Assembly: GCA_964035575.1 (NCBI GenBank) | Contig: OZ037844.1 | Location: 1,550,001-1,614,000 of the forward strand | Reading direction: 5' to 3' | Length of the DNA stretch: 64,000 nt | Source of the DNA: Rhynchopus sp. YZ270_cl-10 | Lineage: Eukaryota | Shown here: one piece after another, positions 58 to 56,837 of the stretch | Position numbering within the stretch: position 1 is the first letter of the stretch | Layout of the letters: each line of letters begins with the position of its first letter | Notes under the pieces: model-generated | The model's input: only the letters and a program-made list of their open reading frames with translations | Database searches by the model: none | Told to the model about the DNA's origin: nothing | Translations under genes and position numbers: made by a program

Positions 58-325
58 AAATAAGTATCTTTTGCGTGCCAATAGTGACTAAGCAATGAGA
101 GGCTTATGGGGGTACATCTCAGAGGCCTTTCTTTTTTTAGGTGTATTGTTGCGAGAGGGCTTTTGTATTTCAACATTTTCATTCCCCATCACCCCGTTTC
201 TCAAAAAACCTTTTCCGTTACCAAAAAAAAGGGACAAAAAAAACCGTGACGCCTGTCTTTTACTCAAACCATTATATTCCTCACCCCTTTCCCGCTCCCC
301 TCTCACCCCGGCTTCTTTTTCTCTG

Positions 326-388
326 TGCTTTCATCCGGATGGCTGGCATCGTACAGCGGGTCAGTCGGAGGTGCCTGCATCAACAACT
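326..388 (+). repeat. Dispersed ~60-nt hairpin family B (representative copy)
   Basis: TGCTTTCATCCGG...GGGTCAGTCGGAGGTGCCTGCATCAACAACT; relatives near 3129-3180, 22619-22676, 24095-24148, 41871-41921, 47475-47537, all on +. Confidence 0.75.
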
Positions 389-1515
389 TCACTTCTCTGC
401 CAAAAAAAAGGTCATTCGGGGCAGATGCAGAGCAGGCCAGTAGTGTGCCCCTTTCGATAGAACACTAGGTTTTGCTGAGTCAGCGAGCTGGACGTAGATT
501 ACCTTTAGCTCCTGAGGGTGCGTTTGCGCTTGACGATTTGGGACGCCTCCAGGAAGGTTGCACAGAGCTGACCCATTTTGTTCCAGAGCACAGAGCACAG
601 AGGCGGGACTGCTGATTTCCTCTATCCATATAAGGGCTACCCTTTTTTCTGGCAGCGAGAGTTGAGCCGAAGCTACGATATGCGCATTGCATTCAGCAAT
701 GCTGTGAAGCACGAAAAAAGGAAGATGTATATGGGGTGCAGTGGAGGAAGGGAGGGGGGGGAGGAATAAAACCCTCAACAGGGGTTTTCAGAAAAACACA
801 AAAAAAAGAAAACGGAGGGCCACAGTATTGAGTACCATTTGTAAAGTACTGGGACTCTAAACAAAACGGAGGGCGTCGGGCTGCTATATCTTTTTATCTC
901 CTACTCTGTAAGGGTAGAAGCCGGGGAGGGCCGGGGGAACAAAATAGTCACCACATTCAGCAGAAACAAATATTTTGTTTGCGTTTTTTTCTCGCCCCCC
1001 CCCTCCCCCGCACGAACCTTTCGCACTAACGGTGCCAAAGACCTCCCCCCGCATTTTCCCCTTTTTGATTTTGTTTGTTTCTTTTTGACCTCTAAGAGTA
1101 CGATCATAAACACAAAAAAATGATTTTTTTTTTTTTTTGAATTTCCTTTTTTTGGAAAAACTACCTTTTGTTTCTGTGATACGGTGCAGGGGCAGGTGTG
1201 AACTCTGCACACAAAACTCACACTTTTCCCTCTGAATTCGAACTATTCCACCACCAACCCCCTTTTCCGCGAAGAGACATGCCAGGTTCCAACCAGCGTT
1301 CCCCGCACGAGAAACGGGAGAGTGGCGAGAAGATGTGTACCCTGTTAAAATGGGGCAGCTTCATCTTTCAAGACCTTTTTCAACACAAATTTTTCAACAC
1401 AGAATTTTTTTTTTGCGAGAAAAAATAGAAAAGAACAAAAGGTCCAACCAACAGTATCGACCTGCCAGGTCCTTTTCTCCCCCATTTTTTTTCCTCTCTC
1501 TGCAGCGTTTTCCAT

Positions 1516-1674
1516 ACAATGCAACGAGGCCGAGTAAACCTCGCTAAGGCCAGATACGTGCGTGGCTGCTGCGCACTAAAAACTTACAATCACGCCTCAG
1601 CCACGCCTCAGATCGATCTTCCATCCACCGACATTGCCTATTTTCAAAAGCGTAGTCGGCCTCGATTGCATTGT
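1516..1674. mobile_element. MITE with ~18-bp TIR
   Basis: ACAATGCAACGAGGCCGA ... TCGGCCTCGATTGCATTGT; diverged second copy at 9300-9475. Confidence 0.7.
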
Positions 1675-3018
1675 GTGGGTTTCTCCTTCTTTTTGCAATT
1701 AGGAACCACTCTCTTATCACAACCCTTTAAAATTCCACTCCCCCCTTTTCTTATTTTTTTTTTTTTTTTGTTTTTTTTTTTTTTTTTTTTGCATTTGCGC
1801 GAGGGAGCACTTTTGCACTTTGAACTTGACTTTTTATTGTCATAGCGTGCCTTCGTCTGCCTGCATCTGCCATCATATCTCTTTTTAAAGAACTTCATGC
1901 GAACTCAATAATTCTTCCTGACAGTTTTTTTTTTTTGCACTTTGAACTTCTCTTTTTGCACTGCGCTGTTGTACATGCACATGACATGATATTACTTAAT
2001 GAGACTTTTTTAAGGATTCATCACGTCATTTATGCCCAAAAAACAAGATTGCAGTATTCAACTTTGCAGATGGCTCAGCCCCACAGAGGCTCAGACTCAT
2101 CTTAAGCAACCTTTTCGCTTTTGTATAGGTGAAGTGTGGTTTTGTTTTTGATGCACACATCTCGGAATCTCGGAATCTTCAGGGCATCGTTCCCTTGCCA
2201 CTACAGTGTTCTGTCGGCCAGAGGCTTTTAGCTTAGACCTATTACAGTTAACGGTACGGCCTGATAGAACACAATGATACTAGTGGTACGTTCCGACCTG
2301 TATTTCAACCATGTACTCGAGATTTCAGCCCATTGGAGGTCCTGCAGCAAACACCTGTGGAGTGGAAATAGGTAGGGGGTGGGGAGGGTAAAAACTAAAG
2401 GTGTACTTTGCACGGCGGTCTCCGTATAACAGCATGTTAGGACACTCCCTCCTGACGGAGGATCGTGACTGAGCCTAGGCTCCGTATTATATTGCATGGG
2501 ATTTTACCTGGAGTTTTCACCCCACCGATATGTTGATGACTGTATGGTTATTAACAATGGCAGAGATGTGTGCGCATGAGGGGACGTATTCATCTTAGAA
2601 GGGGGAGGTTTGTTTTTGTTTTTTGTAAAGGTGACTGAGCACAGTGAGGCTTTAGTTCATTTCAAGGTTTGAAGCTGTATTTTGTTTTTTAATGCTTACA
2701 AAAGCGTACCCCCTCAAGGGTAATTGAGCAATCAACGAAAAAAAAAGTTTTTGTTCCTACTTTTGCACCTACTTCATTCCTCTTCCTCCAGAACCATTGA
2801 TCAAAGCTCAACACCCGAGAAAAAGACTTTTTTTTAAAATGAACAATGTTTACTTTCCCTTTTTTTGGGAAGTACAATAATTTGCCCCCCGTTTTTCACA
2901 ACACGGGCAAAGCCATTATTTCCTTTTCACATCTTCTGTTGGGTGGTTCCACAGTGTACTTTGTCCTTGCATTCTTCCAAAATTATCGGCCGTAACGCAT
3001 TTTAGCACGTTTTTTAAC

Positions 3019-3125: not shown

Positions 3126-3652
3126 CTCAGCATCTGGCTTCCATACCGTGGGTTAGTCGGAGGTGTCTGCAGGAGTAACTACTATTGTTTTGCTTTTTGT
3201 TTTTGTTTGCTGTATGCGAGGTGCTCATTCATCTTGCAGAGTTTGTTGTTGTTATTATATTTTTGTTGAGTAAACAAAGCACGCAAGCCTCACAGCCTTT
3301 ATTACCTCTACCCCTGTCTTGAGGTGAAAAATAATAGTATGCAGTAGTGGGAAGTGGGGCAGCCAAGGAACATTTGCCCCAGGGTTCTAGCTTCGGGCGG
3401 GGTTTGGGGAGACTGTCCAGACATCAGCGAAACAGAGGAAAAAAAAAAAGGGGTTTTTCATTTTCATCCCATTCCCTATTCAGGTCCAAGCCTGCAGGTG
3501 CTGACCCTTTCTGAGAATTTGCAGCGCAGTTTCCCTGTCTAAGAGTGTGCCTTTGTACACGAGACCACCGCTATTCTGCGGCAGCACAGCACCAACCCCT
3601 ATTCCCGTACACCCACATGACGCACACACAGACAAGACAACTAATACTCAAT

Positions 3653-4878
3653 ATGCCCAAGAGAAAGGCAACGAGTGAACACGTGTCAGAAGACGAACTG
3701 CACTTACCAAAAAAGATGGCGAAGGCGGCCAGCGGAGCGGGCGCCAACAGTGTACCCCCCTCTTCCGCTTCCTCAGATGCCATCAACCTGACCTTCTTTC
3801 GCAAGGATGGCGCCGGACTGCACCCCACCAGGAAATGGGACCTGAAGTGGGTGGAACCCTTTTGCGATGTGCAATTTAAGAGTGGTCTTGGGTTCACCGA
3901 GGACAACCTCCAGAACGTCGAACTGTTGCCGCAACAGAGAGTGTTTGCCGAGTGCCCTGCGCGAAGGGACGACATCGTGGAAGAAACGTGGGAGCTGGAC
4001 TTGAAGGATGTGCCTGTATGTTGTAAAGGCCTGGTCGTCCAGAACGTAGGCGTTGTCTTCGTAAATCTGCAGAGGGTCCTCCGCCAACAGGACGGAACCT
4101 TGAGAGTGGATTCGCCGTGTGACAAGGAGAAGGCCGTGTTGACAGGTGTGGCCATGCAACTGCTGATGTTGTGTGGGTTTGATGATGGCAAGGATTTTAC
4201 GATCACCTGCCAACCAATCGAGTTCAAGTTTTCCGGAATGGAGATCAACAGTGAGGCTGACGTATTCGTGGTGAAGCGCTGCAAGGGAGGAACAGAACAA
4301 CCTGTGTTTATCTGGGAGGACAAACTGCCGAAGGACGAAAAGGGCAAAGAGAACACGATTGCGGATATGCTGGAGGCCTCTGCTGCTCAAATCATTGGGG
4401 AGATGATTGCAGTGCACTACCGGAACAAGATGCACAACTTTGAGTCATGTGAGCTGTACGCCATCCGCCTCATCGACGACAGGGTTGCTTTCTTCAGGAT
4501 GGAGATGACTGCAGAGCAGATTGAGGCAGTGTGCGAGGAGGGTGTCATCCCAGACCACAAGCTCAAGGTATAACTATTGTTGTGTATGTTTTTGTGTCAA
4601 CAATCACACTACCCCACGAGTGGAGATTAGAGTTCAATTCAATGAATATCACTTTTGTTGTATACTTCTTACAACAGGTGGAGCATGTTCCGATGGATGC
4701 ACTGACAGCAGGCGAGGACTACGGAGTGAGCCTTCTGGACCCTGACAACAGACTCTGGTTCGTGCAGATGATGGCGTGCATCCGTGCTGACATGCTGAAG
4801 CGTGAGCTGCCCGACTTACCAAAGTGGGTGTCGGACGTACATGGAAAAGCTATTGATCCGAAAAAACTCTGGGGATAG
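3653..4878 (+). CDS. PD-(D/E)xK restriction-endonuclease-fold protein, paralogue A; exons 3653-4567 and 4678-4878 (371 aa); NLS-like N-terminus
   Basis: Motifs EADVFVV...IWEDK...AAQIIGEMIA. A phase-0 GT..AG intron joins ORF 3545-4573 to the frame of 4531-4878 and is conserved in the paralogue. N-terminus MPKRK...PKKMAK. Confidence 0.75.
4568..4677 (+). other. Spliceosomal intron (110 nt); paralogous intron at 6559-6669
   Basis: AAG|GTATAA ... TTACAACAG|GTG; AT-rich; removal skips an in-frame TAA and restores the frame in both copies. Confidence 0.8.
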
Positions 4879-5661: not shown

Positions 5662-6873
5662 ATGCGTCGTCTTCTGCTGTGCGCACGTACCACCAGGTTG
5701 CCATCATCTGTCTCGCGGGCGTTCTCAGTTACTCCCACGCTGTCGAACAAGACCACCCAGCCGATTGACCTGAAGCCCTTTAGGGAGTTCCAAATTGCAC
5801 CCAACAGAGCCACTGTCAAATGTAACCTGCACCCCACCAGGAAATGGGACCTGAAGGGGGTGGAACCCTTTTGCGATGTGCAATTTAAGAGTGGTCTTGG
5901 GTTCACCGAGGACAACCTCCAGAACGTCGAACTGTTGCCGCAACAGAGAGTGTTTGCCGAGTGCCCTGCGCGAAGGGACGACATCGTGGAAGGAACGTGG
6001 GAGCTGCCTCGTACAGGCCTGGTCGTGCGGGACGTCAGCGCTACCTTCAAAAAGCTGCAGAGGGTCCTCCGCCAACAGGACGGAACCTTGAGAGTGGAGC
6101 CGCCGTGTGACAAGGAGAAGGCCGTGTTGTTCGGTGTGGCCATGCAACTGCTGATGTTGTGTGGGTTTGATGATGGCAAGAATTTTACGATCACCTGCCA
6201 ACCAATCGAGTTCAAGTTTGCCGGAATGGAGATCAACAGTGAGGCTGACGTATTCGTGGTGAAGCGCAGCAACAAGGGAGGAACAGAACAACCTGTGTTT
6301 ATCTGGGAGGACAAACTGCCGAAGGACGAAAAGGGCAAAGAGAACACGACTGCGGATATGCTGGAGGCCTCTGCTGCTCAAATCATTGGGGAGATGATTG
6401 CAGTGCACTACCGGAACAAGATGCGCAACTTTGCGTCATGTGAGCTGTACGCCATCCGCCTCATCGACGACAGGGTTGCTTTCTTCAGGATGGAGATGAC
6501 TGCAGAGCAGATTGAGGCAGTGTGCGAGGAGGGTGTCATCCCAGACCACAAGCTCAAGGTATAACTATTGTTGTGTATATTTTTGTGCCAACAATCACAC
6601 CACCCCACGAGTGGAGATCTAGAGTTCAATTCAATGAATATCACTTTTGTTGTATACTTCTTACAACAGGTGGAGCATGTTCCGATGGATGCACTGACAG
6701 CAGGCGAGGACTACGGAGTGAGCCTTCTGGACCCTGACAACAGACTCTGGTTCGTGCAGATGATGGCGTGCATCCGTGCTGACATGCTGAAGCGTGAGCT
6801 GCCCGACTTACCAAAGTGGGTGTCGAACGCAGATGTAGAAGATCATGATGATCCTGATCCGACCAAACTCTAG
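5662..6873 (+). CDS. PD-(D/E)xK-fold protein, paralogue B; exons 5662-6558 and 6670-6873 (366 aa); mitochondrial-presequence-like N-terminus
   Basis: Core nearly identical to paralogue A; N-terminus MRRLLLCARTTRLPSSVSRAFS is Arg/Ser/Leu-rich with no acidic residues. Confidence 0.75.
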
Positions 6874-7690: not shown

Positions 7691-7821
7691 CCCCCTGAGT
7701 CCGACAGTCGGACCCCCTGAGTCCGACAGACGGACTCAGGGGTCCGTCTGTCGGACTCTGGAGTCCGACAGACGGACTCTGGAGTCCGACTGTCGGACTC
7801 TGGGGTCCGACAGTCGGACCC
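7691..7821. repeat. Cluster of GTCCGAC(A/T)GTCGGAC palindromes
   Basis: About six iterated palindromes; reverse complement matches 13309-13370. Confidence 0.85.
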
Positions 7822-9116: not shown

Positions 9117-9299
9117 CAAGAGAAGGCAGCTTGACAGCAGCGAAGGCGGAGGCTACGGGGAAGACAAGGTATGTAAATGTTTAACTTTCAGTTACTTGTG
9201 TAGATGCAAACAACACACCCAGTGGTTTGCAGCATTTTATTTTCTTGTGTGCTTTCTCTTCTTTGAATCGAAAGTATGTGAACCTTATTACATCATGAT

Positions 9300-19171: not shown

Positions 19172-20851
19172 ACAACGTAAAATTTCTTTCAATGAGAAGA
19201 GAGGGTCCAGTCTGTCTTTTGTGGACTAGGATGAGCTCGTACCACTTTATTTCATTTGTCTGGTACACTGTCACGAGAGGGCTTTGTTCAAGTCAACTTT
19301 CATTTTTGTTCTGATATTTTGTTTTTCAGTATTTCCGTTTTTTTTGTTATCGTTATTTTTACTTTGAGACATAAGTACTACTGACCCGGTGCCCACCGGT
19401 TACAGCTTACACCAAACCATTTAGTTACCGGATCCCTGCATTTCCATAACCAACGCGGGGGATCCCGTACCTACGGTCCACAGAGGCGATTTGCACACCT
19501 TTTTTTTAGAGGCCTCGGATTTTATGTGACTTAAACACTGCGAAACTTATAACCATCTTACTCGCTTCCATTCCTCAATCACTCCTTTTGATCCCCCTGC
19601 TGTGTTAGGGGCTTTTTCCCAATTTTGTAATGTGAGGACTGCACGAGCCTAGGCTCATTTTTTATATCATTTTCTGTTGTTAGATGCGCAACGTAAAGAC
19701 GGTTCATCTTTCAAGTTTTGTTGCCAACTTAGGGAACTTAACTATTTTTCTCTCCCCCGCAGTTTTTCACTCACCGCTCCGGACAGGACACTGCTAAACA
19801 GTGGCAAACCTGGTCCTTTGATGCGAACGTTCGAATAAAATGGCAATGCCCGTCTTTTTTGCTGTTTGCTTTTTGTTTAGTTTTCTTGCTTAGTTTCTTC
19901 AAATCATTCTTTAAGGTGACTGCACGAGAGGCTGGGACTCATCTTATAATTGTTCTTGTTCCTTTTCCATGCGTATAGTAGGTGACTAAGCACACAAAAG
20001 GCTTAGGTTAAGCTTACAACAAACTTTCTTTTTTTCCCTTGCATCTTACTAATCATCTCTTTTTACCCCCTTATTTGTACCATTTCCCCCAACACAACTG
20101 GTTGCATGTACACATGCACAGTACTACGTACACCACCTATGTTAAGCACAACTGTTAAGTACAACTACACAAATTCACGAAAGTACGCACAAGTGAGGGA
20201 AGCATGCCACCATGTAAATGATCCAAAAAATTTTCCCAGCATTTTTTTAACGCAAAAAAATCCCCGTTTTTCTTTGAAAAGACAAAGCAGCTCATGAAAA
20301 GGGGGAAGGGACGGAGTTTTTTCATTTCCCCACTTCCAGCTTTTTCTTAGCGTTTATGGGAAAGGTTCTACAGGACGCACCCTCGGATGTGCAATGTGTT
20401 GCACGCAGGTAAATTGGCCCCCCATTTATTTGGGCCTTGGCATTTGCTCCTTTTTTTAAGGTGACTAAGCACGAGAGGCTTAGTTCATGATTTTTTCATT
20501 CTTTTACAATGTAGGTTTCGAAAACTGTCTGGGCCTTGAGCGACAGCGGAACACTAACTACAAGTCCACAGAGGGTCATGCACTGATGAAGTCCACCTCT
20601 GTTTACAACTAATGTATGCGTTTAGGACTGAAACATGGACTTGTGGTACAGATGTACCACCCTACAAAAACTTTTGAATATGCATATTTACAAAAAAACA
20701 AAAACAAAACAAAAAGGATCCAAAAATACAACAAAAAAGATTGATGAATAACCAATGTTCAAAACATTAAGTAATCTAATCAGACTAAGCACGAGAGGCT
20801 TAGGATCATCTTATAAACTTCTCTTTTTTTTGGAAAGGTGACTGATCTATT

Positions 20852-20973
20852 ACCTGATTTTTACCCCGCGTAGGCGTGTATAGGCGCGTAAAGGCCCGTA
20901 CAGGCCAGTATAGGCCAAACCCCACCCATTTTCCCCAGCCTTTACGCGCCTATACGCGGAGTAAAAATCAGGT
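20852..20973. mobile_element. 122-bp MITE inserted within a family-A hairpin
   Basis: ACCTGATTTTTAC...GTAAAAATCAGGT TIR plus internal inverted TATAGGCGCGTAAAGGC / GCCTTTACGCGCCTATA. Confidence 0.7.
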
Positions 20974-21265
20974 GGACCTAGCTCGCCTTACAAAAACTTA
21001 TCTCTTCTTTTTGTACAGAAACCCACAGGATGAAGCTATCGGCCTTTCAACTGTACTGGTGTCTGTGTTGTGTTCCCTCAATGGGAACACAACCCTTTTT
21101 TGTGTGTGTTCATCTTTTCGATTTTATCAGCTTTGTTCGTATTTTCTTTTCTTTTATGATTAGGCAATTTACAATGCCAAAATTTCAGATAAACATTATG
21201 TGGATTTTATCTCTTTCGAGTTTTCTTGTTTTGTTATGAAATGGAGAGCCGGGGGGGAAAAAATA

Positions 21266-22268: not shown

Positions 22269-22729
22269 CCCAAAAAAAGAAAAAACGTAATCGTGCTGTC
22301 ATCGGCCGTCATCGTGCGTCATCGGGCGTCATCCCACAGACCCTAAAACGCTCCATTTGGTCTAGACTCCTTCATTTGTGGGTTCTGGCAAATGCACCGT
22401 GCCACCTCAGGGTTCTTCTTCTTGGAAGGGGGCGCAAAAAGTGCTTTTTTGTTTTACATTATGAAATAGAAAATAACGGACACGGTTGCTGTATGCATCT
22501 GTTGTTTTGGTCCGTTTGTTTGTTGTGTGGTGCAGGCCGTACTCCCCCTGATTCTGATAACCGACTCCTGTCCCGGAGGGCTTATTTTGTTAAAAAAACG
22601 CCCGTTTGGTTTTTCTTGTGCTTTCATCCGGGGCCAGCGTACACTGGGTCAGTCGGAGGTGTGCCTGCATCAATATCCCCTCCTTGTGTTTTGCTAGTTA
22701 TTTTTACCTCTTTTGTTTGCTAGCTTTCG

Positions 22730-22764
22730 AAGGTGACTAAGCACGAGAGGCTTAGGGTCATCTT
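22730..22764 (+). promoter_or_regulatory. Canonical copy of 35-nt GNRA hairpin family A (candidate RNA cis-element or retroposon 3' end)
   Basis: AAGGTGA-CTAAGC-A-C(GAGA)G-GCTTAG-GG-TCATCTT; 20 or more intergenic copies seen only on +, with compensatory stem changes. The repeat itself is well supported, the function is inferred. Confidence 0.55.
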
Positions 22765-23058
22765 AATAAACTTTTCTCTTCTTCTTCTTTCCCACACACC
22801 CCCTTTTTTTTTTGAGCCTCTTTGCGACACCTACTGTGTGCATGTGTGTGGTGTTTATAAAGCACTCCCACTCTGCCGCAGTACTTTCTTGGTTTTTGGA
22901 GGAAAAATGGAATATGACAAGTTGACAGTGATGAATATGTGTATGCAAGTGAGGCATGTTCATAACTGTCAACTTGTCGCTTGTTTCTGATGTGTGTGCA
23001 GGAAGGGGCACAGCTTGTCTTTTAATTTTCTTGTTCTTTTTTTGTGATAATCTAAGTA

Positions 23059-31727: not shown

Positions 31728-33231
31728 CCTTAAAATTTTTCTGCTCGCTGCGCTCGCGGAGGTATACCTCAAAAAAATTTCCGCTCGCTTCGCTCGCGCT
31801 GTACGCCATTTTCTTCCTGCCTACGGTGCCATTTTACAATGTCTAGGGGGATTCACTTGCATTTTACAGCCAAAAATGAAATTTGACCCAAGCTGCAAAA
31901 GTTTGACCATTTTTAGTTCAAAGTGACCCAGCCGTTGCAACAGCCCCTGCTTCTGGAAGACGTATTGATTTTGTACGGTTAGTGTACGTAAGGCGCAAGA
32001 CCAAGCGCCGTTAATAAAGGATTAGATTCCGTTTTTTTGTTATCTCGCAAAGCTGACCCTTCGCCTCTCCACCCTGTGGCTGGCAGGGAGGCGCGCGCGA
32101 AGCGCGCGACGACCGCTTTCACCAGGTGGGAAAGCTCGGAATGTACTTTTTTTCCAGGAAATTATTTTTTTTTGACCATCATGCCATTCAGGGGGAAAAT
32201 CCCAAAGTTAGCAAAAGGCCTGAGTAAAAATGCAGTTTTATTGCAATAATCTGCTGTCGTTTCTTTCCAGGAAAGAAAAAAAATCCACTGTTTAGAGATA
32301 AGGTATGCCGTCTGGATGTGTCATAACAGGATGGGTGCACTGAATTATTTATGGTGGTCACTGAGAACGGATCATGTTTCGTACTCTTTTTTTTTGAACC
32401 GCTCCCCTCCCCGGGAGGAAAACCTGCGGGGGAAAAAAATATGCGGAAATGCACCAATTTCAGCACCCAATTTACCTCAAATTATAATTCATTTCAAACA
32501 CTGTCTTTTGCCGTATCAGGCAATAGTCAGTACAACTAAAGGATGGGCTTCGTTCAAGCCGTCTTTCATTCCTTAACAACTAATTACTCGGGAAAGAAAC
32601 ACCCCTTTTCAGTTTTTGTTTTCTAAACCACAGACTGCCCCCAGAAACATACAGTTTCATGACAAGCTGTGTGTCCCGGTTTTTGCCCTCAGCAGGTCAG
32701 CGGGGTCTCAATTTCAAAAACTTTCCTTTTTTGTTTTATTTTAAATATTGAGGTGCCTAAGACTGCCGTGCCTAAGCACAACAGTATTAGCGTCATCTCT
32801 TGTCAACACTTTTCTCTCCCTCTCTCCCTCTTTCTTTCCTTCTTTCCTTTCTTTTTTCCAAATCCAATCGCGCTGAGGAAGGGCAATTTCCAGGTATGGT
32901 CAGACAATGACGCGGAGGGGAAAGAGTTGTGGAGTTGAGGAGTTGTGGAAATTTTTGCCCCACACCGGCATTTTTTTTCTTCTTCAATTCAACTTATTTT
33001 TCTTTTCTACGTTTTGCAAAACACACACCATAAAAAGAAAGATGGGGCCATTTTTGTTGATCCCTCACCATATACTATCAATTTATTGATTGCATATGAT
33101 GAAAATACTTCTTCAAAATATCACCAACACTAGTAGCGTCCCTTGGCAATCATTGTAGATAATAAAAACAAAAAATAAGGGGGAAAAAAAAAACTATCAA
33201 AGGAAAAACCCCCCCAAAGCGGGGGTTTTTA

Positions 33232-33271: not shown

Positions 33272-35101
33272 TTTTTTATGACTAATCACGAGAGGCTTAG
33301 GTTCATCTTAATAACCGTTTTCTCATGTATTGCCTTCTCTTTATGTGAGCCAAAAAAAAAGGTTGCTTCGCGCTGCGTTTTTTTTTGGCGTTCATTCCTT
33401 ATAGTGCTTGGTAATAACTTTTTTGAGCCCAATAGTCTGTCGAGTACAATAGTGAAGTGAAGAGGGGGGTATTTCATTTGTGTTCAAAAAACATGATCGT
33501 AAAATGTTGGGAATATGGACTAAAAAAAAGTGTTTGAAATTTACATTAGTTCGATTCCGACACATCGCTACTTGCCGCCACATGGCACAGCAGAGCCATA
33601 CTCTATCTCTGTTACACAAGGGATGATGATGGATCTGTCGTACATTATTTTATTTTTTTGACGTGCGTGTTAAAGAATACCACTGCTATTCTTTCGAGTA
33701 CCGTGTTACACCCCCTTTTTAATGCTTGCTGCCAAAGCAGTGAGGATACGAATTTTGTTTGTTTCTTTCTTTTTCAGTCAGCTGCGTCCCAGAGGCGTTT
33801 GCACTATCAATCTCACTTTTTTTTTTTTTTTTGAGTGTTGTTAGCTAGCCGCGACTTTGTACAGCAACACAACTTATTTTTCCAAGAATTATTTACCCTC
33901 CCCATTTTACCCCCCCTAATGGATTTCAAGTATCCTTCCTCTTGACTGTTAAACAGTTATCAATTGTCAACAGTTTTCGTTCTCCAGACTACGAGACACG
34001 CCCCCCTCCTCTTCGCACTCAATTACCCCCACCCTGGGGTGGCAAATACGTATACGTGATACGTAGCGGGTTTTTTTATACGTATTTTAACGCATCACAC
34101 GCGATACGTGGGGAGTAGTCACGTATTTGCCAACACAGACCCCCATCCGTGCGAGCCTCAACTCTCAACATTATATTCATTAACCAGCTCTTATCATCCT
34201 TTCTTTCAGCTCTCATCATCTATTCGTGTTTTCTTCTGTTCTTAATTGTTACGTTTTTTTAAAAGATGTGAGCCGAGAGGTTTGTGCATCTGACATGTTT
34301 TGTTATCTTTTAGTGTGACGAAACACCCTGCGAGGCCTTTTTCTGCATCTTACTCATTTTCTTCTTCAGTTTGAATCCCTTCTCCATGCATGTCCTCCCC
34401 CTCCCCCTTGCCAAGGTTCAATTGGTTACGCGACACGTAAAGGGAGTATTTAGTAGTGTACAATATATTTTTTTTTGTATTTCTGCATCCCAGTGGGTGT
34501 CTACACGTCTATCAATTTCCCTCCTTTAAATTGTGATTGCATTAGTGTGAACACTTCGTTCTTCACTTTTATTTTTCTTCCACGATTCCTTCTGAAAAAA
34601 AAAATATGTGTATTGTGTTCTTGGCAGCTTCACACTTTACTCCTTGTTTTGGATTGCGTCTCTAAAGGGCAATACTTCCTTTGTCTCTTTAAACCAATCT
34701 TGGTTGTGCGTGCATCCTGTGTGGAGCCTTTCTGCGTTGCTTCCAAACAAAATGGATAGTTTTGCTAAGATAGAGAGAGGAACAAAAAGCAAAAAAGAGG
34801 GGGAAAAACAACACCACTGAGATTCAAAAGCAGCCTTCTATTGTTGTCCTCTCGCGGGTTAGGGTGCATCGAAACGAAAACAAAAAATGTACATTCTGCG
34901 CTCGCGAGTAACCAAGCAGCAGGCCATCTTTGTCTCTGTTTTTTCCCCTCTTTTTTGTGCGGTTCCTTAACACGTGGCTCCTTGTGCAAAGATGCTCTGA
35001 GCATCTTGATATTTTTCATTTTTTTTTATGATTTTTTATATTTTTTTATGTGTGTGTACAAAAGAGGAAGATTTTGCTCTTTCTTTTCGTTGTTTCTTTT
35101 T

Positions 35102-35460
35102 CCTCTCTCTCTCTCTCTCTCTTGTCCTTGTAAATCCTCAGACAGCAATATTTGGACCGTTCTTTTTGCATTTGCATTCCTTGAGTGTGACGTGAAGGTT
35201 GTGTCTTGCAAGGAACCAGGACCGATACTGCACCATACGGGTCCTTTTTGGTGGTGCTTATGCTTCATAGGATGACAAAGACAAGCCTTGTGTCGAACAG
35301 GCAGTGGTGTCCCTTCAGGTGCGCACCATGCATGTGGCCTGGTGGGACTGTCGTGAAGTGTTCTGCAGCAGGTGTTTTGATAGCGGCAGCACTGCAAGGG
35401 GACGTCTACCTGCTTTTGTTCTTCGAAGGTGGCTAACAGAAGAAGGGGCTTAGGATCCTT
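35102..35460 (+). repeat. ~360-bp SINE-like dispersed repeat ending in a family-A hairpin (copy 1)
   Basis: Near-identical to 53962-54325, same orientation. Confidence 0.9.
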
Positions 35461-35758
35461 TTATTTTTCATTTTTTTCATTTTTTATTTTTGGCGTGCAT
35501 TCAAGACATTGTCTGCGCATTGTCAATTTTTTCACCCCCTCTCTCTCTCTCCTTCCGATTCCTGGCGGCAGTTTTTTTATTTTTTTATTTTAAAGTTTGT
35601 CAGAGCTCCCCATCTTTTGTCTGAATATGTGTGTGTTTTTTTTTCTTTTTGTGCACACACATAATTTCATTTTTTTTTCCACTACGATTTCCCCCTCTTT
35701 CCCCTTTCTTCTTTAATGTCAACGTGTCAAAGCTATGAAAATATTTTTAAAAGCTATT

Positions 35759-43049: not shown

Positions 43050-43297
43050 ATTTTTTCTTTTTTTTTTCTTCTTCTTTTTGTGAACACACTCATGCTTCTG
43101 TTCGCCCTGAGCAGATGGTACATGAATTCCTTTTAGAAAGATGTGTAAACACGCGAGGCAAATTCTCTCAACTCTTTAATCTGCCTCTACCCATGACCGA
43201 TGGGGCGTTTGCACTTTCAACTCTCCCCCCAGGTCCCCTTGGGAAGATCGACTAAGCACGAGAGGATTAGGTTCTTCTCATATTTGTGTGTATTTTT

Positions 43298-44440: not shown

Positions 44441-47400
44441 ATTTTTTTTATATAGGAAACTTCTTGTCCTTCTTGTCTTCCCTCCCCCTGAACACCGTTC
44501 CTTCCCTCACGTCTATTAGATGTGGTGTGCACGAGAGGCACGCTCATCTTTCAAGTTTTTTTTTTTTTTTTGTTTTATTCCTTCAGTGGCTTCTGCTAGA
44601 GCGTGGCGGGGGAGAACGGTGTCCCAGGCATTTGGGGTAGGCTTTCATTTATCCAGAACGAAAAAAAAAAACAGCGAATTTTTATTTTTTAAAAACGGAC
44701 AGTGGAGACTTGTACAGGTGGCAACTACACTATTCCAACAATTTTTCAAAAAAGAAAAAAAGAAAAATTCTTTTAAAAAATACAGAAGTCATCTTCATCT
44801 CCTCTCCCCTTCTTTTGCTTGCATCGTCCAGGGGAGGCATTTTTACATCCCCTTTATCCATTGACTACTCTCTCTCTCCTGCTCTGTTTTTTTACTTTTG
44901 TCGGGGGGGTCTCTAGTCCATTTGCGCACTTTTTGTATTTCAAGTCATCCCTTCTACACATCATTGGCGCATGTGGACTTGAGCCCACCGTTATCGACTC
45001 TTTATTCATCGCGTTACATCATGCTCATGCGCGAACACTACATTCGTGCGTGCAAAATATTACAAAAAAAACTCAGGTCTGCGGATGTGGTAATATCCCA
45101 GGCAAAAGCCCTTAGTGCAAATTACACACAACAGCCGATGCGGTCGCATCATTCCAATAATGATTGTGACCTGGTGAGAAGCAGCTCTGCATTGATACCT
45201 TCACTTTCTGTTGAACACAGTTCATCTTAGTTACAAAACCGACCTTCCCTTTCTTTGTGACTAAGCACGAGAGGCTTAGGTTCTGGTCCCGATTTTTTAA
45301 TTTTTTTGGTATTTTAAACTGTGGTGTTGTGATATTCTTGTCTTGTCCTTCTCCTTTTTCAAGGCGAATAGGCGCGTGTGGACGCCTGGGTGTACCTTGC
45401 AAAAAGGAAAAAAAAAAAAAAAAAAAACGTTTTTGTCTTCTTTTTGAACTGAGTTGTGCAGTGTGGCACATTCATTTTTTATCAAAAGGTTCTTAGGTCG
45501 AAACTTTCCTCCCCTTTTTTTACAATTTTTTATTTTGCTTTTTTTCTCGTATTTCACGATTGATTCCTTTTTTAGGATATCTGCATCCATTGGGGTTTCA
45601 TCAAAATGCATAAATTTCAAAGAACGTAGTAGGCGTGGACTGCCTATGTCTAACACCACTCTACCTGTGCTTGGCAATGTGGCATGGCAACTTCTTAGAA
45701 TCTAGCATGTTCTTACGCATTGCGAAAAAAGTCACTTTTGTCGACGTTTATCAGTTCCTTTTTCCATTGTTTAAACGGTATTTTTTAGATGCGTGATTTT
45801 TTCCCCCAACCTTTCTTACTGTAGGGTCAACACTCAGGATGGTGAGGTATAGTATTGACGGGGTAAAGGGTGCAAAAACCGGATTTTGGGGAAAATTTTG
45901 GCTGGTGCTTACGGAAATCGGTCAATCCCCCACCCCCCGCGGAGAACCAATTATTTTTATTTCTTTTCTGAAAAGTCAAATTTTGGGTAATTCCTGCACG
46001 GTAACATCGCCCGTTGTTGTGCGTTGGTCTTTGCCTTTGTGTTATGTATGCATCAAAAACGTTCATTCGACTTTTTTTTTTGTTTGATTTTTTCCCCCCA
46101 ATTCCCCTCATCGCTTTTCGAAGCAACGATAGAAAATAAATGTTATGTGCTCTACTCTCTAGCTTTCTGTTTTCCAGACAAAAGCTGATAAACGTACTTT
46201 GATGAGGGAACGTGGAATAAAGTTTTCTGCCACCATCCCGCTAGTCCAACCAAATTGGCTAGGGGGGATTGTTGACACAAATAGTCCATGTTCCCAATAT
46301 CAATACGGTTTGACTTAGTCGACCCACGCGATAGATGAAAGAAGATCTGTAAGTGTTCTCTGGCTAAGTGAGGTGCTGATCGGGCAGCGCAACATTTTAA
46401 ACCCCATTTTTTGTTTTGTTTTTCGCGATTCCTTTTTTCCCCCCGTTCGTTACGATTTTTTTTAAACTCCTTTCGACACAATACTGTATCCCGAGGAAAG
46501 TTAAGGCAACCCCGGTAATCACGCAGAACAACAAATTAAGGTTTATCGTTGCTTACCTTTTCTAGGTTACGGTGTTTTGACACCTTCGACTTCACGTTCG
46601 TTCAGATGGGAGCGCATATTTATTAGTTTAGTTTTTTTTTTTTGGTCTAAGTTTGCGTGCCACGAGGCGTGCACAACGTTGTCCCCCACTCCCCATTTCT
46701 TTTAGATCTGTCTCAGCACGACAGAAGCACACGAGGTTTTCCGAGGTCAGCATCTTACCACCCTGCAGGACTGCACGGTTCGGGTCCACTCACGGCGTAC
46801 ACCAACACAGCGGCGTCAGGGGGACTACTAGTGGAACCATCTTAAAAAACTAGTCATTTGGTCACCCTGACCAGTCCGCGCGTGAAGGTGTGCTGTTCAC
46901 GAGAGGGCTTTTTTCCGTCTTCCGTTGACACCTGATCTTTTTTTTCATTCTGAAAGAGTTCAGTTCGTGCGATCTTTTTGTTTTTTTGTTTTGTTTTGTT
47001 TTTCACTCTCATATCTTGTCCTTATCTTAGCTCAGACGGAGACACAATTTGGGGAGATTTTGTTAGGTTTTGTGCCATATTCTTCTCCCCTCACCGGGCG
47101 GAAGCAGGGCTTAGGAACCACGTCAGATATTTCCCCTCACTCCGGGTGCTTCATTTCGAACGGGAAGGTGCGCTAAGCTAGGCGAGAGGCTTAGGACCAC
47201 CTTGCTCAGAGCAATATTAGGTGATCGCTTTTTATTTTATTTTGTGTTTTTTATATTTCACCTCCACTTTTTTTTCCACCAATTCTCTCCACCCCCTGCC
47301 TTATTCTGTGTTTCCTTTTTCTTTTAAGCGTTGGGTGAAGCGAACGGGAGTACCTGCAAGCTTCGCCACTCTTCAGCAGAAGGTGGGTTGTGCACCTGCC

Positions 47401-51000: not shown

Positions 51001-51377
51001 CGTGTGCAGGGGTGCTTGTCCTCAAGGTTGTGCTGGACGTGTGTTCTGAGATCTACATCTACTGCACGGGGCGCAGGGACAGGCTGCACGAGCTTGCACT
51101 ACAGCCGAAGCTCTCTGGTGTGGAGGATGTGGAGGTCGCGGAGATGCTGCTGGTGTCTGCCAAGCACGTCTCTGACGTGCAGCTGTCGCAGACGTCGTTG
51201 ACGTCGCTGCCGAGCACCTCCTGCCTGCACGTCAAGCCCTACGAGAAGGCACCGTCGCCTGCGACAGTCACATTGGACGTTGGTGTGCTGTCCACAGCAG
51301 ACGCATCGTCACGACACAGTGGCCACTTCGACATGACGTACAAAAGCAAACGGCGGAGTTCGAACTTCACAGTCTAG
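48060..51377 (+). CDS. Mucin-stalk multipass surface protein, paralogue 4 (likely start [11 protein letters not shown])
   Basis: ORF 47889-51377; first in-frame ATG at the conserved signal peptide is 48060; shortest stalk. Confidence 0.9.
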   Translation: MLRCVHALSLLCIVWGGAPAPPIVPAEHYDSYTPAPGVEVSGLFERDGYLIMGVVGKIQQLAIDTALKQVVPAGDRVFADVTSWVVRSDDTKPTSMLALMTTPTGLRYAKLTSQRPTALFQGSVQTLTGSPNVRCSKLEQDKYQSNWLYMCCDTPVLHVVDLNGAQKKVTLPGNCVDTTYDAVNKRLYVAHPTGVVVYDTRTPNAIVEVPARNFAKAGIVTLHFNRNDNFLTMLAESPTAPGQTSVQTFPPDGTAYNGQISIGAASRLGCIKDAMAVVYDQTDTYRYKSMPSLRNEGKKPGGVWQVGPGTPTMSCIYCGKTWLFYMSYDTVHVYCTDPVVLGLTPAPTPAPETAAPLTPAPMTSVPPTVAPDTEAPATLSPPTSVPATLSPPTSVPPTLVPATSSPNKSPTPDTAAPITSSPATPSPPTVAPTTPSPPTTSPATPSPPTLAPATPLPATSAPGTAGPTAVPLTPAPATPSPPTLAPVTPAPATPLPQTATPTTLPATALPAGTTLAPPTPAPTTLSPLTLSPPTLAPPTHAPLTALPLTPLPPTSQPLASSAPTAAPATTVPHTALPTTAPTPASTLSPDLSAGPLVATPLPSSDMQSQVPLTQTPTPAPLPTPTDAVDGTPSPSSLASEESVGDSGSGSGKLDHVRAHHSKHTVQTMDKATVTAETVSGVSSAASVVSGASAGSALRLTVVGQLCKLGQPMEKRKYPLLLHPTQWVLFGSQAAGVVVGNFLITISFWLVMSIVVQVVVCTGFFTNADAMGLCRFPSSPLFVFQFLLQGTSLGAMALVFYPPSTPLFLLGAASLMFCCVVPFYVLYSVCNGVPRKAYYLHDVDVDRKTWLSALIGPGEWVSRFETNMWSYRYAAVVRPYRQEWACYSFVEMAASLTVAAVDSTTAHSLVACGHQKTGSAVVFIVLLVAEIYAWPHARARDGYMLPAFQCMQASALLLMATGYYVENTDYWTFGAAAKLLVACAGVLVLKVVLDVCSEIYIYCTGRRDRLHELALQPKLSGVEDVEVAEMLLVSAKHVSDVQLSQTSLTSLPSTSCLHVKPYEKAPSPATVTLDVGVLSTADASSRHSGHFDMTYKSKRRSSNFTV

Positions 51378-52039: not shown

Positions 52040-52727
52040 AGACAGAGACGTAGAGACGTGAGACGTGTGGTGGTACGTTGAATTCTGCAATGTCACCTGC
52101 CTTCTGTGCTCGTTTTATTTGCCTTAATTGATGCTCCTCCCGACCGGTGGTTTATTTATTAGAAACTGGTAGTGTCTGGCAAAAGACACACCGCCTCGTT
52201 TCTGAAAATAGTTCACTTCACGCGGGAAACACTTGCTTTATTTTCTTTTTTCTTTTTTGCTTACACGCAGTTATAAGAAAACTGAACACGGCTGCTGCCA
52301 AATGGCAAATTTGTCAAATAAATGTAACAAAGAGCCTGCCAGTTGCCCCTGCCTTCTTTTCCTTCTTTTACAGTGAATACCATATACCACCCGTTCTCTA
52401 GGCAATCCCTTATGAGATCTTGTTTGTTTTGTTTTGTCATATCCACCCCCTCTCTTGGGTGTGCACACATGAGGCATATTCATCTTTCCATGATCGTTCT
52501 TTCTCCAATTTTGGTTGACGTACGGCCCGACATGCCGTCAAGACGCAATGTGCGTAACTTATCCTAACTGTCATAAAATCTGACGTGATTCCCACATTAG
52601 GAAACGCCTCTATCACTATGTACGCGACACTTCTCCGCTATGTGTCCGGCGAGTTGTTGTGCACTTTCAAACTTCTGCTTAGGTACGTCTTTTTTTTTTT
52701 GCTTTCTCTTGCTTCTCTTGTTTTGAG

Positions 52728-52814
52728 GTATTGGGCAATTTGCGCGCCTGCTGCCATCCTTAGATGTGGTAGCCGTTTCTCAGGCTCCCTCTCCGGAATC
52801 GAACCCTAATTCCC
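52728..52814 (-). pseudogene. 87-bp orphan fragment of 18S (SSU) rRNA
   Basis: Reverse complement reads GGGAATTAGGGTTCGATTCCGGAGAGGGAGCCTGAGAAACGGCTACCACATCTAAGGATGGCAGCAGGCGCGCAAATTGCCCAATAC, a highly conserved eukaryotic SSU segment; flanks are not rRNA-like. Confidence 0.92.
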
Positions 52815-53961
52815 TGCAGTCAGCGTTGTATTCCATCATTTATCAACTCTGTACAGCAACAATCCCCTCAAGCATTTGGCAATGAGGGGGGCTTCTGGAA
52901 GGTCTCAGCAGGTCCTTTATCTCATGCAAAAAGCTCCTTTGTTTTTTTTCTATCACTCAACCAAAAAGCGTTGTCTTTCCCCTTGAAATATGCGTGCAAC
53001 GTTAAGATGACTAAGTCCGTGAGTGTCCACACGGTACCACTGTTCATTTGGCGTTCTTCAAAACTTTTTTTTTTGAGGTTTCTTGTCCTTTTTCGCTCTC
53101 TCTTTCCCCCTCTTTTTTGTTTCACTTTTAAGTGCGTTAATTAGAATAACGTCGTCATTTACCTAAAATGTGGTTTTGATTACAAAACACCACAAACCAC
53201 CCCCATCCTTACCCGCTCGCGCTTCGTATTGCGATTCCTCTTAACAATTATTATCCTCTCTTTTCAATTTAAAGATGTGTGTGTGTGCGCATGAGGCACA
53301 TTTCATCTTATAAGCTTTCTTTTCAGTCGTCTGTATTTCAAAAAAAGCAGTACAGTGAAAACTGGAATTTTTTTTTTATACCCTGCGTCTTTTTGTAGTA
53401 CCGTAGTTGGCAATTGTGCTTTGCGTTGTTGCTGGGTGTCCTTCCTCTCCCGGTGAGGCGTTTTTGTGCATTTTTTTCCCCAACTCTGCCACGGAGTGGA
53501 GTCGGCCCAAAAGGGTCCGCCCATTTTGGGCGGACTCCACCGTGCATCGTCTACGGCGCGAAGAACTAGGAACACTCCAAACGAACAAGAGAGTTGAGTT
53601 GATAGTGCAATCAATCACCCATAGGGTGTTATTCGATGCAACTCTCTCTTTTTACGCGTTTCGCAAAAAAAAAAAAAAGAGTTGCGTCTCCCCAGCGTTT
53701 ATCTGCTCCACGTGTCAAAAATATCAACGTTTCCCCCCCAAAAATGTGTGGCTCAAAACACGCCCTGGATAGCGTACGAAAAAAAAAAGTACCTAATACC
53801 AGGGGACCGCACGATATAGCTCTCTGTGTCTTTTTTTTCGGTAACGCAAACAAGGCTCTGTGAAGGGGAGGCTTGACTGTCACCCCCTGACATTGCTTTT
53901 CTCCCCCCCCTTTTTTTGTTTCCCTTCACGCGACGCTTTTGCGACATTTTTGCCTTTTCTC

Positions 53962-54325
53962 TCCTCTCTCTCTCTCTTGTCCTTGTAAATCCTCAGAGCA
54001 ATATTTGGACCGTTCTTTTTGCATTTGCATTCCTTGAGTTTGACGTGAAGGTTGTGTCTTGCAAGGAACCAGGACCGATACTGCACCATACGGGTCCTTT
54101 TGGTGGTGCTTATGCTTCATAGGATGACAAAGACAAGCCTTGTGTCGAACAGGCAGTGGTGTCCCTTCAGGTGCGCACCATGCATGTGGCCTGGTGGGAC
54201 TGTCGTGAAGTGTTCTGCAGAAGGTGTTTTTGTGTGACCTATGATAGCGGCAGCACTGCAAGGGGATGTCTACCTGCTTTTGTTCTTCGAAGGTGGCACA
54301 GAAGAAGGGGCTTTAGGATCCTTTT
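53962..54325 (+). repeat. ~360-bp SINE-like dispersed repeat (copy 2)
   Basis: Near-identical to 35102-35460. Confidence 0.9.
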
Positions 54326-56837
54326 ATGATTCATTTTTCATATTTTTTAGCGGATAAAGGAGGTCACAGCTTTTCTTTGTTACGCAGCTGATGCTGTGCG
54401 ATAACGGATGTGATGAATGTGACCAAGCAGAGTCAGTGGTGCAATGGGAAATCGGGCAACGACCTGTCAGCGACCTGTCAATATCGACCCCCTCCCGGAG
54501 TGCCATTACTGTCATCTTATCAACTTTTCTTCGGTGGTTTACAGAGAGAGGCTTAAGGATTTCATCTTTTATCTTTCTCTCTTGACAACTTTGTGGATGC
54601 GCTTTGCACCCTGTTGGGTTCGAGGTTGTCTGCACAAATTTTGTTTGAGGTGACTAAGCACGCTTAGGCTCCGGTTCATCTCAACCTTTTGTTTGGGGTT
54701 CGATAACCCCGCGGAGTGTTCGTGCCTGCGTCCCAGAGGCGTTTTGCACTATCAACTTCACTTTGTTTCACATGCCATCAGCCTTTGAAGGTTCTGTGTC
54801 TACACATCTACAAAATCCGAATTCACCTTGTTTCACCCATTCCCCTCAAAGGGAGTTTTTTTTTCTAACCTTTTTGACGTCTCTTTTCATCCTTTAACGA
54901 CCCATATCTTAACAACGAATGAAGGTGACTCAGCACGGGAGGCTCAGCGTCATCTCATGTAACCTTTTCTATCCTTTTTTTTTCCATTCAACTTTTTTCA
55001 ATTCATGACAACTTCAAAGATGTGCTCATGTCCCTAGAGGCCCACTATTTCAAGTTGCGTTCTATACTTTGTTCATATGTTAGCTCCCGGAAAACAGGAG
55101 CGGTGAACATCAATTGCCACGTTTTGTGGATAAGTGTGTGTGCACTGTGAGGTGGCAGATTGGTCTTACGGCCTTTCTTATATTTGTGAGTGTGCGAGAG
55201 AGTGTCTATTGTTTGGGGAAGTTACAACTGCAGAAATAGGCAAACCCCTCAATCAGTCTACGTCAGGGTTGATTACCATTGACAAAAAAATATGTAACTG
55301 CCGATAAACAAAATTGCAACCCCCTTCAATGAGTCTGCGTCAGGCGCAGGACGTTGGACCTTTGCTTTTGTATAGTCGACTAAGAGAAGAGGTTCACCTC
55401 ACCCGGGTCTTCTTCCTGTTCTTTCTTTGCATGCCCACCCTTTGCATGAGCTCGACTGAGATGCGTTTTTAGCACATTTCAACTTCTCTTTATTTTGAAA
55501 AACATTCCAAAAAAAAGCAAGGGTCCATTTGTCGCACCCTCTTTGCTTTCTTTTTCGTTTCGTTTAAGAAAAGAAAGTATATGAAATAACATTTCAACTT
55601 CTCTTTGTTTTCCTTTTTTTTTGATCGTCGTCAACTTCGTTGTCTTAGTGTAGGACCCCAGGATGCGTTACACATAAGTATTTGTGTTAACTCTGAGTTG
55701 ATGTGTACGAAGTGTACATTCATCTTGCAAGGCGGTTCCTCCTTATTGCTGTTAGAATAAACTGAAACACGATTTTTACTGCCAACAGTTTTTTGCCCTC
55801 ACGCTTTTCCGTGTATGTTCTTCCCCCTCACCCAGGTATCATCGTGCGCTAAGGAAAAAGTCTAAATGGGCTTCCTAAATGGCTGCGGGCAACGAAACAA
55901 GATGCAGTAGTGGATTAAGTGAGGATGAAGTCTGTGGCAGTGTTGTTTTGTTCAGTTTATCCCCGCCCCCCGGCATTGCCACTATCACACGCCTGCCCTC
56001 TTTGCTACACTCCACACCATCGGGATTACCCTGAAACACTGCTTTTTTTTAACATTTTTAACACCCACACCAACACTCCGATGTCGTGTTTAACGCTTTC
56101 CTTACTCACGTAAACTCCACTCTCATAATCTAGCTTTTGATTTACGCTTTCTGGGATGTGTGTTTTTGAACGTCCTTTGTGTGCTTTTCTCTTCTTAGAA
56201 AGTAGATGAAATTGATCTTTTTTCTGTGGCCATATTTACCTATGTTAAAATCCGACGGCCATAATATATATTATTAGTGTCCACTCTTCAGAGAAAAAAA
56301 CAAAAAAATGCCCACGAACCAAAAAAAAGCCCGCCCCCGGTTTCATGAAGTGCGCAATATGGGGTTTTCAGGAGGAGCACCAAAATTGTATTGTTGTCTT
56401 TTATCCACGCATCTCTGTGGATGTCTCACCTTTTGTGTTCCGGCCGGAATCTGACCTCATGACCCTGTGTCTGCAAAGATGCTGTTCATTTGATTGATGA
56501 GAGGAAGCGGAGGGTGGAGAGGGTGGAGAGGTTGGAGGGCATATCAGATGCAGACCTCGCATTGGGGTGCATACACAGCACAGTCCTTGCAGCTATATTC
56601 ATTTCGTGTCTCCCTCAGGTCTCCCAGATCAGCGGCGCAGGGATTAGCTCCACGTAGCCTCACCCACGGGGAAGAGGACCCCAGCCAGAACCACTGTACG
56701 AACGGAAGAACTGCAGCAAAACGCCAATCACGACGTTTTCGAGCATTTGTTCAGGGTTGAAACCACTGCTAAATGGGGTATTTCTTGTCCACACCACACC
56801 ACACACAGAGCTCAGAACACAAAACCACAACAAACGA

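Follow-up and report, generated by a model that had tools for sequence, protein, structure and literature searches.

In bacteria, REP and BIME sequences are imperfect hairpins of ~35-40 nt that lie between genes in many copies, join into runs of mixed modules and act as insertion targets. Here we describe a hairpin repeat in a 64,000-nt stretch of contig OZ037844.1 (positions 1,550,001 to 1,614,000; hereafter the window, meaning the whole stretch that was analysed), which resembles REP and BIME sequences in its size, its hairpin, its intergenic copies, its mixed runs and its use as an insertion target, but differs from them in its eukaryotic host and in the strict head-to-tail polarity of its copies. 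A second point of comparison is provided by SIDER1 and SIDER2, which, like the hairpin repeat, are described as short, high-copy, non-coding and intergenic in co-oriented euglenozoan gene clusters, mostly in sense orientation and with T-rich sequence upstream (PMC2323293, PMC2689281). SIDER2 of Leishmania is reported in the same papers to have a 538-bp core, 79-bp signatures and an A-rich 3' end, to retain vestiges of duplications in 18.9% of cases, to lie in sense at ~4:1, and to be extinct and degenerate, whereas the hairpin unit is ~42 nt long and T-tailed, lies in sense throughout the window and includes a large class of near-identical, young copies. Since the unit is shorter than the 79-bp signature (a comparison of size, not of signature sequence), has a T-rich tail and lacks any excess of target-site duplications, it is not the 3' stem of a SIDER. 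When the unit was considered as a SIDER or ingi-clade short retroposon, the expected body (~550 bp with a 79-bp 5' signature), the A-rich 3' end and the 11-19 bp duplications did not fit, while sense orientation and T-rich upstream sequence agreed, in one gene cluster. An earlier note on this DNA had proposed, as one half of its inference, the 3' recognition stem of a SIDER-like retroposon family; we favour the mobile element in that proposal, but not the stem, as the unit is complete at ~42 nt and has sharp ends.

Extent, copy number and strand of the hairpin unit

The family is a high-copy repeat with sharply defined ends and T-rich flanks; its copies in the window keep strictly to the + strand, and at three loci it has received insertions at one fixed base. 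Overall, it is probably a mobile mini-repeat rather than a demonstrated regulatory RNA. Contigs of public runs were aligned to positions 19400-25600 (runs X2 to X5) and 22590-22810 (X2 and X4); because long contigs match the window almost without differences, these runs appear to come from the window's strain or nearly so, and not from independent species. The unit is a sharply bounded hairpin of ~36 nt followed by a short ATAAAC tail, ~42 nt in total. One bin beyond the 5' end of the hairpin the depth drops from ~474,000 to 2,560, and the loose-end consensus is T-rich 5' of the unit and reads TAAAC plus T-rich sequence 3' of it. Unique pieces reached a summed depth of 90-97 in X2 and 96-218 in X4, whereas the 36-mer reached 1.76 million and 0.49 million, respectively; these values are not copy numbers, because overlapping contigs raise them. 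Upstream flanks differing from those of the window were carried by 367 contigs (296 + 71) in X2, from which we estimate at least hundreds of near-identical copies, and probably thousands. One core variant was listed at a frequency of at least 2%, a G>T change at 22757 in the bulge. The repeat is apparently undescribed, as far as a literature check of titles and abstract openings extends, which took in few subscription papers and had the key diplonemid supplements (PMC10161547, PMC12621601) outside it. Exact-pattern scans for the hairpin core found none in viral, metagenome or genome contig collections, protein-led scans of viral contigs gave zero loci, plasmid blastn gave one 19-nt chance match, and an Atlas search gave leads below 0.9 only.

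The earlier note had listed 24 copies, all on the + strand and none in coding sequence. Each of these is present within a few bases of where it had been placed (Table 1), although they are not independent: 35426 and 54290 lie in one segmental duplicate, and with 20458 and 20783 probably being halves of one copy, about 22 independent copies are left. The polarity, which refers to one gene cluster only, held for every confident match, with minus-strand matches found only among the weak ones. A single query (22730-22765) gave 16 matches at E<0.05, itself included, all on +, and 22 at E<=1, of which 3 were minus, while 20 block-shuffled windows gave 0-5 matches each at the latter threshold. A hidden Markov model (HMM) seeded on the 24 copies returned 32 matches at E<1, all on + and 8 of them beyond the listed 24; of its 62 rows to E=50, 5 were minus. 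With a covariance model trained on 17 copies, there were 21 matches at E<=0.21, all on +, including the 17 training copies, and six weaker minus matches, four of which were the reverse strand of + copies. Thus, further degenerate copies exist beyond the 24. No copy lies in a long open reading frame (ORF), and the only ORF that 43244 overlaps is one of 187 aa in repetitive DNA. The listed copies stand 508-5727 nt before the next ATG and 1080-6427 nt behind the previous stop, with 0 to 6 per spacer and at variable positions relative to the genes. The 7-kb spacer 6873-13823 holds zero copies and many inverted repeats. Gaps of 120 nt or less make up 3 of 23 among the listed copies (P 0.24) and 9 of 35 when 12 added copies, partly picked by eye, are included (P 0.008). 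On their right side the copies are flanked by sequence with 55% T and on their left by sequence with 45% T, against a background of 33%.

The polarity extends to the neighbouring modules. Seven or more further families of short modules also lie on +, the exception being one weak 24-nt minus match to a tail, and several of them end in a similar CAY-YTCAAC/TGAAC motif followed by a pyrimidine tract. The strand is kept at 11 of 11 listed module joints in 22590-22810 and at the 15 listed of 351 in 19400-25600, and the stretch around 54480-55050 is a head-to-tail run of five or six different modules. In the second high-copy family, represented at 22610, the 3' part has ~10x the depth of the 5' part and the fold is no better than that of shuffles. 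By comparison, many of the inverted-repeat elements found in these spacers are symmetric.

Insertions within the hairpin

To judge from their sequences, copies 20458 and 20783 are probably the halves of one hairpin, separated by a 299-bp insert. They share an exact 21-bp stretch, the first copy of the duplication being 20463-20483; as this 21-mer is the core of the family, the match by itself proves little. At two other loci, which stand at single-copy depth in both X2 and X4, pieces of 9 nt and 33 nt resembling the 3' end of the insert sit at the identical hairpin base with a 15-bp duplication. The insertion point is therefore fixed at three loci, at the base before GACTAAGC. The last 120 nt of the insert are 57% A, and its first 30 nt resemble an ordinary T-tail. 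Chiefly from the two other loci with the same junction, more than from the 21-bp match, we infer that a 5'-truncated retroelement inserted by target priming at a single fixed position in the hairpin. Copies tolerate disruption, both by this insert and by an inverted-repeat element. A hammerhead-like core within the insert (20583-20635, +) is the window's only one with a 5-bp stem II, with 0.1 expected per shuffled window; it has no Rfam match and lacks complete stems I and III, and we regard it as a lead only.

Sequence-specific non-LTR (non-long terminal repeat) elements are described as targeting multicopy sequences, transposons included, and their known targets comprise rRNA, snRNA, tRNA and spliced-leader genes, transposons and microsatellites (PMC4640811). 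The present case is similar in that insertions hit a repeated sequence at a single fixed base and duplicate the target, and differs in that the target is a 36-nt hairpin without an Rfam match. An abundant and dispensable hairpin would offer such retroelements a safe landing site, and it is a candidate for a new class of target.

Proposed mobility of the hairpin and alternatives to it

The reading we prefer, with our confidence evenly balanced, is that the unit is a minimal non-autonomous mobile repeat. Its mobility, the RNA route and the enzyme are what we infer from the features above: the unit would be copied from the transcribed strand, probably via an RNA intermediate, by a reverse transcriptase that resident non-LTR elements supply, with the hairpin as the likely recognition handle for its own mobilisation. 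Inserted copies would then decay, while the T-tails and 5' ends of copies would serve as new insertion sites and give rise to head-to-tail runs of mixed modules. The rRNA piece at 52728-52816 shows that RNA gets copied into this DNA, and the window's co-oriented APE-RT LINE, with its 98% identical full-length relative (below), is also in line with this reading. In addition, the four large paralogous genes are separated by spacers that show no colinearity, and hence the hairpin copies were not inherited via gene duplications.

Several observations weigh against this mobile repeat, and its main weakness is the missing duplication. Among 21 copies no excess of target-site duplications was found (mean 4.3 nt compared to 4.2 nt for crossed flanks; at least 6 nt in 4 of 21 compared to 15%), whereas the 299-bp insert carries one. 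No sense-strand poly(A) abuts the unit, and no LINE (long interspersed nuclear element) coding pieces were found near any copy (tblastn with 99 LINE proteins, before 56800); the 3' end of the window's own LINE falls beyond the window. An empty-site allele did not turn up, because the runs are nearly identical to the window. The antisense rRNA piece means that inserts derived from RNA do not always lie in sense here, and the polarity is known for one gene cluster. Finally, the excess of + strand wobble pairs in subfamily B (below) is also predicted by selection on RNA structure.

The foremost alternative, which we consider unlikely, is an RNA cis-element selected by the host, in which a protein-bound GNRA hairpin with its pyrimidine tract controls processing or decay of polycistronic precursors or long 3' untranslated regions (UTRs), irrespective of its origin. 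The strict polarity is in its favour, as it is in favour of the mobile repeat: T or pyrimidine tracts in the window are on + in 66-85% of cases, the probability of 24/24 + copies under this target-strand bias alone is 0.00005-0.02, and such a model alone thus explains the polarity poorly. The at least seven other families of the same polarity with similar 3' ends fit this alternative as well, as do the long 3' UTRs and co-oriented gene clusters described for Diplonema papillatum, a genome with ~52% repeats (PMC10161547). In contrast, the variable position of the copies, with none in 6873-13823, does not favour it, nor does a generic test for a hairpin before YNAAN plus a pyrimidine tract (76 sites, P 0.25).

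The fold itself gives a divided answer. The reference copy at 22730-22764 forms a 7-bp base stem (one G-U), a 2-nt 3' bulge, a 6-bp stem, a bulged A and a C-GAGA-G tip, with an RNA z of -4.55 on + and -2.91 on minus. RNA folding was better on + in 22 of 24 copies, compared to 497 of 955 random non-coding 40-mers, but only 10 copies reached z<-2, the other 14 folding no better than that. The stem and loop variants quoted in the earlier note exist, with GAGA in 10 copies, another GNRA loop in 4 and no C-GNRA-G in 10; 4 of 5 single loop changes remain GNRA (P 0.045). There are two subfamilies, which have tip and base in common despite different middle stems. In subfamily A (17 copies) 76.7% of cells pair and three pairs show two-sided change, but the covariation score was 0.088 compared to 0.089 for shuffles, 251 of 500 of which scored as high, and departures from pairing were divided equally between G-U (9) and A-C (9). 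The covariation above control looked for in a conserved structured cis-regulatory RNA was thus absent from these 17 copies, and covariation fails as a sign of selection here. Diverged copies decay evenly: differences from the reference fall in 80 of 446 stem cells and 35 of 112 unpaired cells, 14 of the latter in a polymorphic bulge column, and in copies 2068 and 54922 both arms are altered to a C-C mismatch. The compensatory stem changes that had been claimed are real, but they are mostly the difference between subfamilies and amount to a few events.

The claim of wobble pairs that work only on the + strand finds support in subfamily B, where a strand-neutral pairing of 10 copies gave 18 G-T to 4 A-C (background 55.5% G-T, P 0.0095; the copies are not independent), and not in subfamily A with its 9:9. 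The same strand-neutral routine on 14 subfamily A copies gave G-T 14 and A-C 5; leaving out the inherited pair lowers these counts to ~8 and 5 (P 0.44). RNAalifold on an automatic alignment of the 10 subfamily B copies found no consensus pairs, which is largely an alignment problem. The earlier proposal of a selected RNA-level element is therefore weakly backed by the wobble of subfamily B, the loops and the polarity, and is not backed by covariation or wobble asymmetry in subfamily A. The founder units are + strand hairpins, and per-copy selection is not evident; structure appears to have been kept between the founders of the subfamilies, not in every copy. No copy matched Rfam at gathering thresholds, at E<=1 (1-56800) or at E<=10 (22590-22810 and 20440-20860), and ARAGORN found nothing on the copies. 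Two likenesses were rejected: for the sarcin-ricin loop, the longest word shared with E. coli 23S rRNA is 10 nt and lies elsewhere (115 of 1000 shuffles do equally well), and for an H/ACA-type guide, the hairpin is too short and the strands of the would-be pocket pair together.

A G-T wobble would be tolerated in single-stranded + DNA too and is therefore not specific to RNA, which bears on a further alternative, namely mobilisation as single-stranded DNA (HUH, Helitron2-like or REP-like), where the hairpin would be a DNA signal inserted 3' of same-strand T-runs without duplication. With DNA parameters 20 of 24 copies fold better on +, 10 of 21 copies have a TTT in the 8 nt upstream compared to a background of 23%, the genome-wide consensus is T-rich on either side, and the missing duplication would agree with this route. 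Helitron2 is described as inserting after TTTT without duplication and as capable of one-ended transposition (PMC3627910), and Helitron-like ORFs are reported in D. papillatum. Helitron2 and related HLE2 elements resemble the repeat in having a 3' hairpin, and the repeat may share with them insertion into T-rich sequence without duplication; they are described with asymmetric inverted repeats of 8-15 bp and two hairpins, with non-autonomous examples of hundreds of bp (PMC3627910, PMC11417382), whereas here a single hairpin spans a fixed-end unit and the loose-end consensus has no conserved upstream part. Since there is one hairpin without a separate pair of asymmetric inverted repeats, the 5' end is fixed without variable truncation, and T-tract bias alone leaves 24/24 + unaccounted for, we regard this DNA route as improbable.

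It is very improbable that the unit, taken from AG|GT to the end of the pyrimidine tract, or just its paired 36-mer, is introner-like, excised from non-coding regions of precursor RNA and spreading as an intron. Hemistasiid diplonemids are reported to have non-canonical introns with paired ends, whose median length in A. motanka is 37 nt (PMC12621601), and the introns and introners of hemistasiids, Euglena and Amoebophrya resemble the hairpin unit in their ~37 nt, paired ends, related lineage and proposed repeat origin (PMC12621601, PMC12501133, PMC7789003); however, they interrupt genes and are spliced, whereas the hairpin unit avoids ORFs and the introns of the window are GT-AG. Subfamily A opens AAG|GTG, the junction of the window's two real introns, but AG|AT stands at the start of subfamily B. 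Behind the tail, 8 of 24 copies have GT directly after the first AG, compared to 67 of 788 (P 0.0006), but in six of the eight this is due to the following module, the insert or an AG before the tract, and the remaining 2 of 18 equal background; only 4 of 24 copies have CAG as this first AG. A real intron contains a weak likeness to the hairpin (post hoc; 1-3% of controls score as high), but zero copies occur in ~16 kb of large ORFs despite 62 AGGT sites. On direct reading, copy 22730 does not carry the Euglena non-conventional signature N3CDG ... CHG N5-6|R (PMC12501133). A cut-and-paste element of the MITE (miniature inverted-repeat transposable element) type would have symmetric ends, a fixed-length duplication and copies in either orientation, with which the asymmetric tail, the strict polarity and the lack of duplication do not agree.

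If the mobile repeat is real, its ~42-nt unit would fall outside the standard routes of eukaryotic transposition, as neither duplication nor poly(A) accompanies its thousands of near-identical copies, and the identity of the mobiliser would reveal the lower size limit of mobile units. The polarity ties the hairpin to polycistronic transcription, and inserted pyrimidine tracts could shift processing sites. A broader suggestion, which we make only tentatively and think unlikely, is a eukaryotic counterpart of REP and BIME sequences, with families of 40-70-nt hairpin modules mobilised in trans off the transcribed strand, building spacer DNA and affecting RNA processing, and a sequence-specific retroelement adapted to landing in them. 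Such modules would be far below the usual size of a MITE or a short interspersed nuclear element and would lack target duplication, and head to tail they would build much of the polycistronic spacer DNA and supply it with hairpins and pyrimidine tracts. Diplonemid genomes are reported to be about half repeats, many without known origin (PMC10161547). If the hairpin is a host signal instead, it would be a rare defined RNA motif for diplonemid gene control.

Genes and other features of the window

Table 1. Positions of hairpin copies, other modules, genes and elements in the window
Feature	Position	Strand	Support or remark
Subfamily A copy, degenerate	81..120	+	HMM, covariance model
Degenerate module directly 3' of copy 84	139..175	+	
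B-like copy, beyond the listed 24	1330..1367	+	HMM E 0.047
Subfamily A variant copy	2067..2103	+	HMM, covariance model
Subfamily B copy	2563..2596	+	HMM
Subfamily A copy, tandem after 2563	2628..2663	+	HMM, covariance model
Two degenerate tandem copies (19626, 19682)	19626..19710	+	HMM
Subfamily A copy, 2-nt deletion	19913..19945	+	HMM, covariance model
Subfamily A copy, tandem after 19913	19979..20015	+	HMM, covariance model
Likely 5' half of split copy	20458..20483	+	5' end intact, normal 3' arm absent
Insert, 299 bp, likely retroposed into hairpin	20484..20782	+	
Likely 3' half of split copy	20783..20818	+	lacks 5' AAGGT; normal 3' arm and tail
Diverged copy	20833..20995	+	broken by inverted-repeat element at 20852-20973
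Near-consensus reference copy with tail	22730..22771	+	
Subfamily A copy, GUGA loop	23308..23343	+	HMM, covariance model
Extra subfamily A copy, internal duplication	32750..32799	+	HMM
Subfamily A copy	33276..33309	+	HMM; directly 3' of other-family module (33229-33277)
Subfamily B copy, short	34263..34292	+	HMM
Degenerate copy	35426..35461	+	within segmental duplicate 35099-35486
Subfamily B copy, degenerate, GCGA loop	43138..43170	+	HMM
Subfamily A copy	43244..43279	+	HMM, covariance model
Best subfamily B copy	44517..44550	+	RNA z -3.07
Subfamily A copy without base stem	45257..45288	+	HMM
Subfamily A variant	47165..47203	+	base stem Watson-Crick
Subfamily B copy, GAAA loop	47552..47585	+	HMM
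Subfamily B copy	52455..52486	+	HMM
Subfamily B copy	53272..53309	+	HMM
Degenerate copy, pair of 35426	54290..54324	+	within segmental duplicate 53955-54349
Extra degenerate copy	54529..54578	+	covariance model E 0.06
Subfamily A copy in head-to-tail module run	54647..54682	+	8-nt T-rich direct repeat either side
Subfamily A copy, GGGA loop	54922..54956	+	stem C-C mismatch
Extra degenerate copy	55371..55410	+	covariance model E 0.21
Extra B-like copy	55697..55731	+	
Second high-copy module family	22610..22675, 316-383, 3144-3171, 41868-41918	+	
Other module families	316/3144/22610/41868; 33229/33782/54719; 24649/54695; 3043/25009	+	
Other module families	1/35760; 25494/55436; 24674/31140; 41726/47325	+	
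GT-AG introns at AAG|GTG junction	4568-4677 and 6559-6669	+	in two tandem paralogues
Four tandem paralogues, 1160-1474 aa	13823-18172, 25560-29984, 37403-41125, 47895-51377	+	
Ubiquitin-LRR gene	56838-57404	+	appears cut off by LINE
Non-LTR element (APE-RT LINE)	57370-64000	+	OTU-bearing ORF1; endonuclease-RT ORF2 running past window end

Every credible gene of the window is on the + strand. By its sequence the host would be a euglenozoan and probably a diplonemid, a placement that follows from the nearest named relatives of ORF2 of the window's LINE, which are D. papillatum proteins with 37-46% identity, and from the intron donors, whose G|GTATA differs little from the G|GTATG described in Diplonemidae (PMC12621601). 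One GT-AG intron of 110-111 nt interrupts each of two tandem paralogues, which belong to no Pfam family. The four large paralogues contain 15-nt repeats coding for Pro/Thr and gave only a weak extensin match in the domain search; they are probably surface proteins. The LINE is co-oriented with the genes and has a full-length relative that is 98% identical, within a cluster of 33. Among 120 listed homologues of the ubiquitin-LRR (leucine-rich repeat) protein, six (188, 188, 213, 213, 265 and 276 aa) end in an identical 10-residue tail after an LRR unit, which suggests that the LINE inserts in sense at one site of the LRR repeats.

The small-subunit (SSU) rRNA piece is ~88 nt long (52728-52816, -), antisense to the genes and behind a T-rich run; no metagenome contig matched a 48-nt stretch of it in an exact-pattern scan, and D. 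papillatum is reported to carry scattered 28S pieces. Inverted-repeat elements lie at 7690-9115, 12960-13390, 21980-22340, 31390-31800, 42330-43060 and 43297-44441, several with internal tandem repeats of 7-9 nt, and 22060-22170 and 42835-42936 belong to one such family in opposite orientations. Just 5' of the third large gene, a near-perfect palindrome of 1.18 kb with 93% identical arms spans 36104-37282.

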